This document shows positions 1,499 to 58,971 of a stretch of DNA of 64,000 nucleotides, one piece after another. The DNA lies in the NCBI GenBank assembly GCA_965221105.1, contig OZ244871.1:114453-178452 (forward strand). The letters are read 5' to 3'. The stretch's first letter is position 1, and each line of letters opens with the position of its first letter. Both the position numbers and the translations under genes were made by a program. Origin of the DNA: Pseudomonadales bacterium (lineage in GTDB: Bacteria; Pseudomonadota; Gammaproteobacteria; Pseudomonadales; GM7GCV1). The notes beneath the pieces are model-generated. The model ran no database searches and had not been told where the DNA came from. It was given only the letters and a program-made list of their open reading frames with translations.

Positions 1499-2272
1499 AT
1501 GTTCACTGTAACGCCTGTTCCGGCCTTTAGCGACAACTACTTCTGGCTGATTGAATCAGCTGGAGAATGCTGGGTCGTGGATCCAGGTGACGCACGACCG
1601 GTATGCCAGACAATTGAAGAGAGGGGCCTTGACCTCAGCGGCATTCTGGTCACGCACCACCACCCGGATCACGTGGGGGGCATTGCGGAACTTGTGGGTT
1701 TGGAAACACCGGTCATCGGGCCTGCCCGGAGGGTCTTGCCCCAGGTTACGGACCCGGTCTCCGATGGCGACACCCGGGAAATTTTCGGTGTTTCTTTCCG
1801 CGTCATTGAAGTGCCTGGACACACACTGAACCATATCGCCTACTATGCGGAGCCGCCCGGGCAGGAACCACTGTTATTTTGCGGTGACACGCTGTTTGCC
1901 GGAGGTTGTGGGCGACTGTTTGAGGGCTCGCCACAACAGATGTTTTCGTCTTTGCAGAAGCTCGCAGCACTCCCTGATGAGACCCTGGTGTATTGCGCCC
2001 ACGAATACACCCTCGCAAACCTCACATTTGCACACAGCCTGGAGCCGAACAATGCCGCACTCAGATCGCGTATCAGTGATGCGGAAAATCTGCGTAACAC
2101 AGGCACCCCAACTGTCCCATCTGACATGCGCCTTGAAAAGGCAACGAATCCGTTCCTCAGAACGGATTCTCCAGAACTGATTCAGAGCGTGCGCGAGCAG
2201 GGGTGCAGCTCTATTGGAAGCCCATCGGAGATATTTGCCGCTGTGCGCGCAATAAAAGATAACTTCAGATAG
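1499..2272 (+). CDS. gloB: Hydroxyacylglutathione hydrolase (glyoxalase II)
   Basis: THHHPDHVGG, PGHT, FCGDTLF.GGCGR, CAHEYT motifs. Confidence 0.96.
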   Translation: MFTVTPVPAFSDNYFWLIESAGECWVVDPGDARPVCQTIEERGLDLSGILVTHHHPDHVGGIAELVGLETPVIGPARRVLPQVTDPVSDGDTREIFGVSFRVIEVPGHTLNHIAYYAEPPGQEPLLFCGDTLFAGGCGRLFEGSPQQMFSSLQKLAALPDETLVYCAHEYTLANLTFAHSLEPNNAALRSRISDAENLRNTGTPTVPSDMRLEKATNPFLRTDSPELIQSVREQGCSSIGSPSEIFAAVRAIKDNFR

Positions 2273-2431
2273 GACCGATGAGCTGACTCAGAGAAATTTT
2301 TTGCGTGAGATTTCCGTGTCAGTTTCTGCGTCGCTATAACCATCGTCACAACACAGGCCTTTCTCCAATACAGCAATGTTTCACTTCAAAACACGCATTC
2401 TGCCAGTGGCGGTCTGTCTTGGGGTGGGCGC

Positions 2432-2569
2432 GCCCAGGCCTACTACCGAATCTCAAGCTATCTCCAATCCATGACCCACCAGGGCTACAATCCGCTGACC
2501 GCCATCCAGATCGCCCTCAACGGCACCGCCGCCACAATGATCAAGCAGGAGAAGGGGGCGAGTAGTTAC
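2432..2569 (+). mobile_element. IS66-family transposase 3' remnant with right end
   Basis: Translates AQAYYRISSYLQSMTHQGYNPLTAIQIALNG, resembling an IS66 transposase C-terminus; ends GGGGCGAGTAGTTAC (IS66 ends are GTAA..TTAC). Confidence 0.7.
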
Positions 2570-2634
2570 AAACTCACAAATTCTTGATGGGGATGCCGCT
2601 TTGTGGACTCCCCCGAACAGGACACCAAGCTCAA

Positions 2635-2809
2635 TCAGGAAACAAGAGTGTACCTACCAAATTCATCGAAGGGACTCGGGGTTCCACCAGATTGGGTCTG
2701 CTCTATATCGACGTTGTGACGGTCGGCGGGTGCCAGGGAAGGCGGGTTGCGGAATCGACTGCCTCATTCGCCGGCACGGGGGAGGATGTATCGGGGGGGG
2801 GTGCTTCAT
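2635..2809 (-). pseudogene. Frameshifted lasso-peptide-like RiPP precursor (reconstructed 58 aa)
   Basis: GGAG RBS, ATG 2809, C9 tract; two +1 corrections give ..RLPWHPPTVTTVDIEQTQ-SGGTPSPFDEFGRYTLVS* (WxxP leader, Thr-2, Asp9). Confidence 0.55.
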
Positions 2810-2877
2810 TGGGGTCGTCTCCAAGTACAATTGGATTAAGTATTCTATGAGACTGGCCGCCAAAAGAGAAGTGTGAA

Positions 2878-2897
2878 TTTCAATGTGAGACACTACT
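2878..2897 (-). repeat. Degenerate copy of the cassette terminal inverted repeat
   Basis: TTTCAATGTGAGACACTACT is 17/20 identical to the reverse complement of the left IR at 17832. Confidence 0.65.
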
Positions 2898-3842
2898 GAC
2901 TGGGGTGTCTGCGAAGAGGGGATACAGTGCCAGGGCGCTTCACACCTCACCGTTGCCAGTGACGCGCTGCCCTGAGGCTCCCGTGAGCTGTACAACGGGT
3001 TCTCCTCAGGGTCAACCGTGCAGAACCATTCCTTGAACAGCTGTGGGCTTCATACATTCGTACCACATTGCCCGTCTCACGGGGCACTCCGAATGGCTCA
3101 TGTACGTCGAGCCGACGGGATGGTTTTCTGTCTCCCTCATCCACGGGAGCGCTGCTTACGCAGCCAAGGGCATCTACAGTGTTTCAGTGACATGACCTGT
3201 GATGTCATGTGATGGCTCAGTTGATGAGTGCTGAGGTCTCTCCTGTCAGGTTTTACTACTGTAGGCTCCTTCGATCCTTTCGGGTTTTCTGTCGAGACTG
3301 ACCCCTGCATGGCGCCGTTGTACCCCTGACGGCTGGGGGAGAGATCTCAGAAGGTGTGTTGACCAACCTTCTGAGTGCCTGTGCATCCTACCCTGAGGTA
3401 TTGGATTTAAAGGCCATGTGCTGTGCGCCCTCTCGTCGCACCTCTATGCTGTCAGAGATGATGAGTCCCTCTCGAACATAGCACTTCGCCGGGGTGTCAG
3501 TGTGCGTCGGCTGGCGCAATTGAACGATGTGACCGGCGCGTCAGTGATTGAACCAGGACAGGTGCTGATACTGGGTACCGAGTTCTTTGACTCAGAAACA
3601 CCCTTTACCGTCACGCCAGGAGACTCTCTTTTTCTGTGGTCACGGCACGACCCAACGGTGCTGCCTCAGAGCTTGCTTTCACGCTGGGACAGCCTGACCA
3701 GAACTGAGATCACCCATCCAAGGCCAGGTTCTCCGGGAAAGTACGCCTCAAGCTGAACGAGAGTGGTCGCTTACGGAAAATCCGTCACGGTGTCCTACCT
3801 GGAAGCGGCCACCCGGCGTTCTTGCCATGAATCTGAGCGCGC

Positions 3843-4067
3843 TCAGCTGTCGTCACCCTCAGAATCTTCCTCAGCATCATCTTCTTCGGCTGAGGACTCT
3901 TCATCTGTTGCCTCCATCTCCATATCCATCTCCATCTCCATATCCATCTCCATTTCCATCTCCATTTCGGCGGAATCTGAGTCGGCTTCGCCTTCAGCCG
4001 CACTCAGTGGCATGGATATTAAAGCTGCAAGCAGCAGGAACAATTGCAGTAACGCTGTGATTTTCAT
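3843..4067 (-). CDS. Small exported acidic Met-rich protein (74 aa) with (M-E/D)9 repeat
   Basis: GAGGAG RBS, ATG 4067, hydrophobic signal peptide ending LSA-A; mature part lacks K/R. Confidence 0.75.
   Translation of the reverse strand: MKITALLQLFLLLAALISMPLSAAEGEADSDSAEMEMEMEMDMEMEMDMEMEATDEESSAEEDDAEEDSEGDDS
3912..3965 (-). repeat. Nine tandem ATGGAN hexamers coding (ME/MD)9
   Basis: Plus strand NTCCAT x9. Confidence 0.9.
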
Positions 4068-4146
4068 GAAGTCACTCCTCGTGAACATTGGGTTGTTTTC
4101 CGTATCGGCCGAAAAAGGCCCGACCGAATCTGATTCTAACAGGCTA

Positions 4147-4869
4147 TCAATAAGTTGCAATCTCTCTTTGAATATCGTTGACCACCGCTGCCGGGTCCTT
4201 GGCCTGGGTAATGGGCCGCCCCACTACAAGGAAATCGCTGCCCCAGGCAATTGCCTGGGCAGGAGTCACAATGCGCAGTTGATCGCCGGACTCAGAACCT
4301 GCCGGACGAACCCCAGGTGTGACCGTCGCAAAGTCTTCACCACATGCCGCCTTGAGTGCCGCAGCTTCACGAGCCGAACACACTGCACCATCCAGCCCGG
4401 CCTGGGCAGCCAGCTGAGCGAGATGTACGACCTGGTCTTCCACTGAACCTGAAATCCCAAGACCATGAAGATCAGATGTCCCCATACTGGTTAACAGTGT
4501 CACCGCAATCAGCAGTGGACGTTTTTCTGGATGTACCTGATCGAGAGCAGCACGAGCAGCGCGCATCATGTCCAAACCCCCCAAGGCATGCACGTTCAGC
4601 ATCCATAAATCCATCTCGGATGCAGCCAGAACAGCTCCGGCTACGGTGTTGGGAATATCGTGAAATTTGAGATCAAGAAATACGCCAAAGCCCATGTCGA
4701 TGAGCCGCCTGACAACTGTCGGTCCCGAACTGGTGAAGAGTTCCTTACCCACTTTGACCTGGCAACTGCCAGGGTCGAGGCGGCTGGCCATATCAATTGC
4801 CTGCTGCTCACCCGGATAATCCAGTGCGACGATCAGCCGCCCGGCACGATGGGAATCAATCGCTCTCAC
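4147..4869 (-). CDS. pyrF: Orotidine-5'-phosphate decarboxylase
   Basis: LIVALD, VKVGKELF, FLDLKFHDIPNTV, VVGRPIT. Confidence 0.97.
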   Translation of the reverse strand: MRAIDSHRAGRLIVALDYPGEQQAIDMASRLDPGSCQVKVGKELFTSSGPTVVRRLIDMGFGVFLDLKFHDIPNTVAGAVLAASEMDLWMLNVHALGGLDMMRAARAALDQVHPEKRPLLIAVTLLTSMGTSDLHGLGISGSVEDQVVHLAQLAAQAGLDGAVCSAREAAALKAACGEDFATVTPGVRPAGSESGDQLRIVTPAQAIAWGSDFLVVGRPITQAKDPAAVVNDIQREIATY

Positions 4870-17917: not shown

Positions 17918-18587
17918 ATGAAACAGTACCGTTACCCCCCCCCCCCCGCATAAGTTAATATATCCCCTGCTCCTGCTGCTGGCAGGGCTTGCGGCACCGG
18001 CCGCGGCGCAGACGACCGTCACCAGCAGCGGGCGAGACGGCCCCACCGCTTGTCTGGCTCAACAGGAGATCACTCCTGATAATGTCCCCATCACGAGTTT
18101 GTCTACGACCAGTGTGACCTTCACGAGACCGGCCGTAAATTGGAACCAATACGTCGCACGGCTCGGCGATGCGCCAGCACCTGCAAATGCCACTATGTCT
18201 GCCAATGTTTTCAATGCCCGTACAGGAGTGAATGTAAACGATTTTACTGGACCTATATCCCCTTCCACAATACAAATAAGCCGAAACCAATCCGTCTCTG
18301 GCCTGGCTGCGAAGACAAACTATTACATCGAAATTTCTGTGGATGATTCAGGACCTATCCCGAAACAGGTGTTTGCCAGACACTGCTTCATGACCGGCGG
18401 CTCCTACACCATATCGGCCAACCCCATCGCTTCAGGCCCAACGCAGGGGTCAACCGGGTGCTTCACGATCAGCCCCCTCACCCAGCAGGATGTGCGCAAC
18501 TGCTGGTGCGGGCGCAAGACTACCCTGCCCCTGTTCAGCTCCACCCAGGACAACACCGATTTCCTGAACAGGTGGGGGTGCCGATAG
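17918..18587 (+). CDS. Secreted Cys-rich FN3-like protein (about 222 aa), out of frame at a C13 tract
   Basis: GGAG RBS, ATG 17918; C12 would give MKQYRYPPPPHKLIYPLLLLLAGLAAPAAA-QTT.. in frame with ORF 18099-18587; 6 Cys; SGLAAKTNYYIEISV is FN3-like. Confidence 0.75.
17935..17947 (+). repeat. C13 homopolymer (slipped-strand contingency tract)
   Basis: 13 consecutive C starting at codon 6; the current length gives TAA at 17951. Confidence 0.9.
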
Positions 18588-58593: not shown

Positions 58594-58863
58594 TTAGCGG
58601 CGCAGTCCCAGCTTCTTGATCAACTCACCGTATCCCACGAGATTCTTGCTTCTGATATATGCCAGCAACTTGCGACGCTGGTTCACCATGCGAATCAGTC
58701 CACGGCGCGAGTGGTGATCTTTGCTGTGCTCGCCGAAATGCGATTGAAGCTTGTTGATATTTGCTGTCAGCAGAGCTATCTGTACTTCCGTCGATCCGGT
58801 GTTTGCTTCGCTTCCACCAAACTCTTTGATAATTTCCGCTTTTTCAACTGCACTGAGTGCCAT
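58594..58863 (-). CDS. rpsO: 30S ribosomal protein S15
   Basis: [27 protein letters not shown]. Confidence 0.98.
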
Positions 58864-58971
58864 CGGACATCTCCTGTGAATATGCCATGTCAATCGAGCA
58901 GCCCACGCATATTTACAGACTACTTTCCGAATCGGAAACGCTGTCTCCAGAAGAGCCATGACGCCTCCACC

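Follow-up and report, generated by a model that had tools for sequence, protein, structure and literature searches.

The analysed stretch of DNA, here termed the window (64,000 nucleotides, C1:114453-178452), belongs to the 2.77-Mb single contig (C1) of a Pseudomonadales bacterium and carries, in the gap between gloB and pyrF, the remains of a short peptide gene lying among fragments of other elements. On the plus strand, positions 2431-2569 hold a solo fragment of the 3'-end of an IS66-family element, more than 35 copies of which, with 80–94% identity, occur in the genome. Pfam gave no match for the short window ORF over this 140-base repeat, and the identity as IS66 came from full-length copies, since two full ORFs of 488 residues end in it, one of them scoring 123.8 bits on DDE_Tnp_IS66. 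Only these 2 of the 33 ORFs that cover the 140-base end are full length, and thus most copies of it are decayed. On the minus strand, a group II intron is represented by a 545-base 5' fragment that breaks off within domains 1–4; it was located at 2899-3443 using Rfam and blastn. Rfam family RF02012 matched at 2999-2858 (45.4 bits, gathering score 34), and two other intron copies are 90–92% identical to the fragment up to 2898/2899. The intron copy at C1:1729065 continues into a reverse transcriptase (RT) ORF (RVT_N 111 bits, RVT_1 110 bits); for the intron of the window, no RF00029 match was found at E up to 1 in 2000-4200, and no RT ORF is present.

The C-terminal LysM remnant of an MltD-like lytic transglycosylase occupies 3397-3756 on the plus strand (LysM, 41.3 bits) and aligns to residues 387–483 of a 492-residue protein with SLT and three LysM domains encoded after gloB in G008, a genome of the same genus (E 4e-16). 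In G008 and in G006, also of this genus, gloB is followed by a gene for a 491–492-residue lipoprotein (SLT and three LysM) and then by pyrF, either directly or past a small gene. Judged from these alignments, the first three quarters of the mltD-like gene (window 2273-3756) have given way to debris of mobile elements, which includes the fossil of the peptide gene. The alternative that 2273-3762 is a whole frameshifted mltD was rejected, as only the last ~100 residues are recognisable. At 3843-4160 (minus strand) a small ORF encodes a signal peptide and an acidic Glu-Met repeat, coded at 3912-3965 by nine copies of a 6-base unit; G006 has a ComEA-like 127-residue gene at about this position. 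Elsewhere in the window, a ribosomal protein S15 leader (RF00114) was recognised at 58807-58926 on the minus strand, with 39.8 bits against a gathering score of 39.5.

Between the IS66 end and the intron fragment, the minus strand holds a copy of a peptide precursor gene. Its 5' untranslated region (2896-2810) is common to a paralogue, c_659, as determined by blastn and DNA alignment, and includes a Shine-Dalgarno-like GGAG, read directly at 2822-2819, 9 bases 5' of the start codon; c_659 has the same 5' region with AGAG at this place. The ATG (2809-2807), whose context is again the same in c_659, is followed by AAG, then by CA and a run of nine C (C9, 2801-2793), which begins at the sixth base past the ATG. 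Next comes a leader-frame piece of 27 residues (2792-2712) with a recognition-like W-x-P-P-x-V motif, supported by translation, blastn and a profile match, and then a core-frame piece (2712-2635), which on translation supplies the last part of the leader and a core of 18 residues with Ser at its end, before a stop codon at 2637-2635. The ribosome-binding site, start, C run and two reading frames had been given in this form in a preliminary description of the DNA, and each was found as described there.

The ATG, leader and core of this copy stand in three different frames, such that no single ORF runs from start to stop and two frame changes are required to join them. At the C9 run the ATG frame is out of register with the leader frame and leads into an unrelated frame of 47 residues; the run would be in frame only at a length of 1 modulo 3, e.g. 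C10. The second break, at 2712/2711, is a 1-base deletion of one G of a GG pair that is confined to this copy, being absent from the three paralogues included in the DNA alignment. A repair by one C in the run and one base near 2712 had been proposed, and it stands, with C10 restoring the run and the missing base accounting for the second break. A scan of 2273-3762 gave no promoter-like (sigma-70-like) site and three terminator-like sites (1.2 expected), none of them at the end of the precursor copy, which is flanked by no cluster genes.

The gloB–pyrF gap of the window was used as a blastn query against its own genome, and seven copies of the precursor were found in the genome. Window 2801-2687 matched C1:749205-749323 (84.9% over 119 bases, E 4.8e-30), window 2737-2646 matched C1:1189100-1189189 (copy c_1189; 76%, E 1.7e-10) and window 2896-2793 matched C1:659343-659229 (copy c_659; 74.8%, E 3.2e-13). 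Three more places in the genome hold the gene, making seven with the window copy. The reading frame is uninterrupted from start to stop in two copies, at C1:749187-749384 (66 residues) and C1:1189021-1189197 (59 residues), while four are broken solely at the poly-C run and keep the peptide frame open to the C-terminal Ser, a residue found in all seven copies of this genome. A profile was prepared from 12 family members, leaving out the window rows and including four of the six other copies, and was run on the 102,642 six-frame fragments of the genome. The six other copies ranked first (E 5.5e-33 to 1.8e-13), and the leader piece of the window was seventh (E 0.015), matching profile positions 4–36. 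The core piece matched the adjoining positions at E 3, which is weak alone; it aligns with the family core, including the E-x-x-x-Y motif and the C-terminal Ser. Given the blastn homology and a profile rank directly behind the six other copies, the window copy is more than a chance motif.

The window copy is a mosaic, its 5' region resembling c_659, its leader the copy inside a biosynthetic cluster and its core c_1189; it may have arisen by recombination among paralogues or have arrived as a fragment. After the in-cluster copy (C1:749187-749384) come an HprK-like ORF (Hpr_kinase_C, 33.7 bits), another precursor copy that is out of frame, an ORF of the Asn-synthase type, and genes for a GT8 glycosyltransferase and a sulfotransferase. 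The best NCBIfam model for the Asn-synthase-type ORF is the lasso cyclase NF033535, at 273.9 bits (E 3e-81), which is below the cut-off of 525. The window copy had been described as dispersed away from its cluster, with no maturation genes in the window. Both points were borne out, as there is no B1, B2 or C match within C1:114453-178452 and the only cyclase-like gene of the genome lies 632 kb off, at C1:751579-753108. The intact copy c_1189 directly follows a Sulfotransfer_1-type gene (C1:1187922-1189335), and its stop codon directly adjoins a copy of the IS66 end that sits 66 bases behind the window copy. At c_1189, homology to the cluster of a relative begins just past the end of the relative's B1 gene, so B1 was cut out there.

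No match above cut-off was obtained in this genome for PF13471, PF05402 or NF033537, and tblastn with the B1 and B2 proteins of relatives found only a 30-residue remnant of B1 and a 72-residue remnant of B2. The sole cyclase-like gene has a 41-residue in-frame deletion right after the SGGxDS loop, in comparison with an 88%-identical relative. The genome-wide search for maturation genes that had been suggested therefore gave a cyclase-like gene, itself internally deleted, while B1 and B2 survive as remnants only. With this gene content, the genome would be unable to mature such peptides.

Intact members of the family were present in other genomes. A word-indexed search of 5.8 billion proteins returned 9 unnamed homologues of 61–77 residues among 267 candidates. 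A profile search of 1.84 billion representative proteins gave 5 matches at E up to 0.001; of these, one is a more distant family member of 62 residues, and two, both long proteins, are probably spurious. Species-representative genomes were also scanned with a pattern, which gave 14 loci in 5 MAG chromosomes, titled Pseudomonadales bacterium, Candidatus Azophilus sp., Gammaproteobacteria bacterium (twice) and uncultured Pseudohongiella sp. Once 11 duplicates that stem from overlapping loci are set aside, the 41 rows for these loci leave 30 distinct precursor copies. No Pfam or NCBIfam precursor model matched the intact members, and a profile search of the PDB with the family gave 0 matches at E up to 10.

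In the five MAG chromosomes the precursor copies stand near genes for an RRE protein (B1), a B2 peptidase, a cyclase and a kinase. Transglut_core3 (B2; 78–85 bits) and PqqD (~70 bits) were above cut-off in all five, mostly within tens of kb of precursor copies. On the curated lasso models, B2 proteins of the relatives reached 66 and 77 bits against NF033537, whose cut-off is 33; their B1 was matched best by a lasso PqqD chaperone model, at 48 bits, below its cut-off of 80, and the cyclase-like proteins were also below NCBIfam's curated cut-off. In one relative the stop codon of the precursor is 21 bases upstream of the B1 start. The clusters further include GT8 and two kinds of sulfotransferase. 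In G001:C1:2013955-2039610, tandem modules each consist of a precursor, B1 and a 573-residue protein of no known family, and four B1 copies occur within 8 kb.

The complex of B1 with the precursor was predicted from self-made alignments. It gave an ipSAE of 0.47, against 0.00 for the best of 3 controls, and is weak support for an interaction; the mark that it passed was also passed by 116 of 157 solved complexes and 2 of 215 mismatches, and 18 of those 157 complexes and both mismatches fall at 0.60 or under. The fold runs share at least 79% of contacts, with a partner pLDDT of at least 51. RRE-leader complexes have been solved structurally, and the pass may therefore stem from likeness to them.

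The copy had been called lasso-precursor-like at the outset, and this is upheld by a homologous family whose intact members, in five MAG chromosomes, lie near genes for the RRE protein (B1), B2, the cyclase and an HprK-like kinase. A lack of intact homologues and of RRE-dependent machinery, in this genome or in relatives, had been named as the outcome that would make the motif match a coincidence; what was found instead is two intact copies here, 9 database proteins and relatives equipped with RRE-dependent machinery.

Comparison of the DNA gave indications of how the cluster reached this genome. The cluster region, C1:744000-762000, has 92–95% DNA identity to the cluster of the MAG titled Pseudomonadales bacterium, and no fewer than six distinct places of this genome match the cluster of one relative at 87–95%; for gloB and pyrF, the identity to same-genus genomes is only 63–69%. 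On account of this difference, the lasso-type cluster looks to have been acquired horizontally and then shattered into at least six places, with B1 and B2 lost. The B1 proteins of four MAGs show 95–97% mutual identity and, together with the identities of the cluster, point to recent horizontal spread among co-occurring bacteria.

The window copy was then compared with the sequence rules for lasso precursors, all of which it had been said to meet. With the pieces joined, W-H-P-P-T-V and, later, T-Q precede a core that starts Ser-Gly, and the leader motif, Thr at -2, Ser1 and Asp9 do fit this copy. The W, P-P, V and T are invariant across the leaders of the family, in which the motif spans -15 to -10; a section of PMC10368454 places YxxPxL at -17 to -12 in other phosphorylated lasso precursors. 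Asp9 is not the conserved acid, and its fit was partly luck: the family-invariant acid is a Glu, residue 10 in this copy, followed four residues later by an invariant Tyr. Core positions were counted by hand, and may contain slips, with cleavage assumed after Thr-x (Thr at -2); on this count the Glu is at core position 9, 10, 11 and 12 in 1, 5, 20 and 10 of the 36 copies with E-x-x-x-Y, and any Asp or Glu falls at 7–9 in only 9 of 37 copies. As the lasso ring comprises 7–9 residues (stated in part of PMC8498205), a Glu at 9–12 does not fit such a ring. If cleavage takes place two residues later, following the spacing in that section of PMC10368454, the Glu moves to 7–10 and in 26 of 36 copies lies within 7–9, with many cores then starting with Pro.

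These positions raise the question of whether the family, though real, is other than classical lasso peptides: the precursors might be substrates of the kinase, sulfotransferases and glycosyltransferase, or lariats with another cleavage site or a larger ring. The place of the invariant Glu under Thr(-2) cleavage speaks for this, as does its shift to 7–10 under the later cleavage, though with Pro at the start of many cores; so do the cyclase and B1 scores under the curated cut-offs, and the GT8 and two kinds of sulfotransferase in the clusters. On the other side, B2 is above the curated lasso cut-off, the lasso cyclase model is by far the best family for the cyclase, a precursor is directly upstream of B1, and every copy here ends in Ser, the residue that an HprK-type kinase phosphorylates at the C-terminus in paeninodin-type systems (PMC8498205, in the portion on these systems). 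On balance this alternative was considered unlikely.

The C run is a feature of the family as a whole. In the seven copies of this genome its length is C9, C11, C12, C14, C15, C18 and C31, and it stands just past the start codon in all copies but one (7/7 here and 29/30 in relatives, C10–C27). By a crude test that considered ATG starts only, within 45 bases of the run, the nearest ATG is in frame with the peptide in 2/7 copies here and in 10/29 of the relatives' copies, together 12/36 or one third. In one relative, tandem duplicates are identical over 420 bases except for C12 in one and C13 in the other, and one is out of and the other in frame. Runs of G or C of at least 9 bases number 52 in the genome (longest 31), against 23 runs of A or T (longest 10), and 41 of the 52 have an ATG within 30 bases upstream by hand count. 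One of the 52 is a second poly-C run of the window, C13 at 17935-17947, a few codons past an ATG; Logan contigs around it have a depth of thousands to tens of thousands, and its flanks are thus highly repeated in the samples.

An intact member is built of an ATG, 2–9 codons and a hypervariable poly-C run, coding for poly-Pro when in frame; then a leader with the W-x-P-P-x-V ... T-x motif, expected to be read by the RRE (B1); and then a variable core with the invariant Glu, the Tyr four residues on and the C-terminal Ser that the kinase is expected to phosphorylate. Slippage in the run would set whether the ATG frame enters the peptide frame. Across copies the pattern of the runs is that of a contingency locus, and it is from this pattern that we infer switching.

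By the same token, the window copy could be a live gene in the OFF phase that slippage of its C run can switch on. The four other out-of-frame copies, with their peptide frame open to the C-terminal Ser, would suit this reading, as would the fact that runs such as its own vary in length between duplicates that are otherwise identical. It is largely refuted by the unique deletion at 2711/2712, which splits the leader from the core, such that a change in run length is insufficient to restore the downstream frame; in addition, C9 is identical in the contigs of four read runs, which would hide minor variants, and the genome is without B1 and B2. A switchable gene at this place is therefore very improbable.

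Equally little credence was given to a sequencing or assembly error as the source of the frame breaks, with the gene being intact in the cells. Homopolymers are error-prone, and the four read runs, all of one study and from no more than three samples, may contain the data behind the assembly and so not be independent of it. The second break lies outside a homopolymer, and a 495-base contig over 2540-3034 was recovered from all 4 runs with 0 differences from the window, at the depth of neighbouring single-copy contigs and with no indel listed at the C9 run or at 2711/2712. The evidence from reads consists of contigs, which drop minor length variants, and about 2505-2539 and 3141-3364 are without a long contig. 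Neither frame break looks like an assembly slip. Inspection of 2712 and 2793-2801 had been advised, and in the contigs of the four runs C9 and the deletion are unchanged; the view that the second frameshift is outside a homopolymer and the copy probably dead is supported by the deletion being unique to this copy and the same in all four.

A start of a group II intron-encoded protein at this ATG, or real genes in the plus-strand ORFs of 88–111 residues that overlap the region, had in their favour the Rfam match to D1–D4 ending 49 bases before the ATG, and can practically be dismissed, given that similarity to intron copies ends at 2898/2899, that the full intron copy continues for ~560 bases into an unrelated RT ORF, that 2896-2793 matches the 5' region of another precursor copy, and that 0 of 7 alternative ORFs had a Pfam match at E up to 1. 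The paralogue match and the end of the intron similarity together refute the ATG as an intron protein start.

Thus, window 2635-2896 (minus strand) is in all probability a dead mosaic paralogue of an HprK-kinase-associated family of lasso precursors. That the copy is dead follows from the out-of-frame C9, the unique 1-base deletion and the lack of flanking cluster genes. It is a pseudogene and does nothing; as the gene is broken, B1 and B2 are lost from the genome and the cyclase has an internal deletion, no product is expected from it.

The closest described systems are those of the paeninodin type, phosphorylated lasso clusters of Firmicutes and Proteobacteria with an HPr-kinase homologue, split B1/B2 and often a sulfotransferase, as set out in part of PMC8498205. 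The present family resembles them in its short precursor with a C-terminal Ser, the HprK-like kinase gene right after a precursor, the stand-alone PqqD-like B1, the B2 peptidase, the Asn-synthase-type cyclase, the sulfotransferases of the clusters, and a leader with an aromatic-x-x-Pro motif and Thr at -2. The paeninodin leader has the same spacing as the leaders described here, with its aromatic residue at -15. The family differs in the poly-C (poly-Pro) stretch right past the start codon, in the many precursor copies per genome, several of them far from the cluster, and in a Glu at core 9–12 rather than 7–9; this genome differs further in being without B1/B2 and in the broken state of the window copy.

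Contingency loci are known from surface-protein genes in Neisseria, Haemophilus and Campylobacter, which have poly-G/C tracts in the 5' part of their coding region. As in these, the homopolymer of the family follows immediately on the start codon and varies in length among copies that are otherwise identical; roughly a third of the copies are in frame, and those out of frame keep the downstream frame open. Unlike in these, the run gates precursors of natural products instead of surface proteins and is known from the comparison across copies alone, and the window copy cannot be switched on. Dispersed multi-copy RiPP precursors served by one enzyme set are also known, e.g. the prochlorosin procA genes of Prochlorococcus, which encode lanthipeptides. 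With them the family shares many precursors, a conserved leader, a hypervariable core and the location of some copies far from the modifying enzymes; it differs in the RiPP class, in the homopolymer gate and in the incomplete enzyme set of this genome. A literature search of titles and abstracts found no relevant paper on phase-variable lasso or RiPP precursors, or on homopolymeric tracts of sponge symbionts.

Tentatively, and with clearly less confidence than the assignment of the dead paralogue itself, the window copy may be regarded as the fossil of a horizontally spreading, gated library of precursors, in which each gene would have its own hypermutable poly-C run and any cell would express a random third, the peptides having a 10–12-residue ring or being cleaved two residues past the usual Thr(-2) site. 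The value of the window copy is as a pointer to a precursor family that is unmatched by Pfam, NCBIfam or any PDB chain and all but one member of which carry a run of the type described for surface-antigen genes in pathogens. Should the gating prove real, a clonal symbiont population could diversify its small-molecule output by this means.
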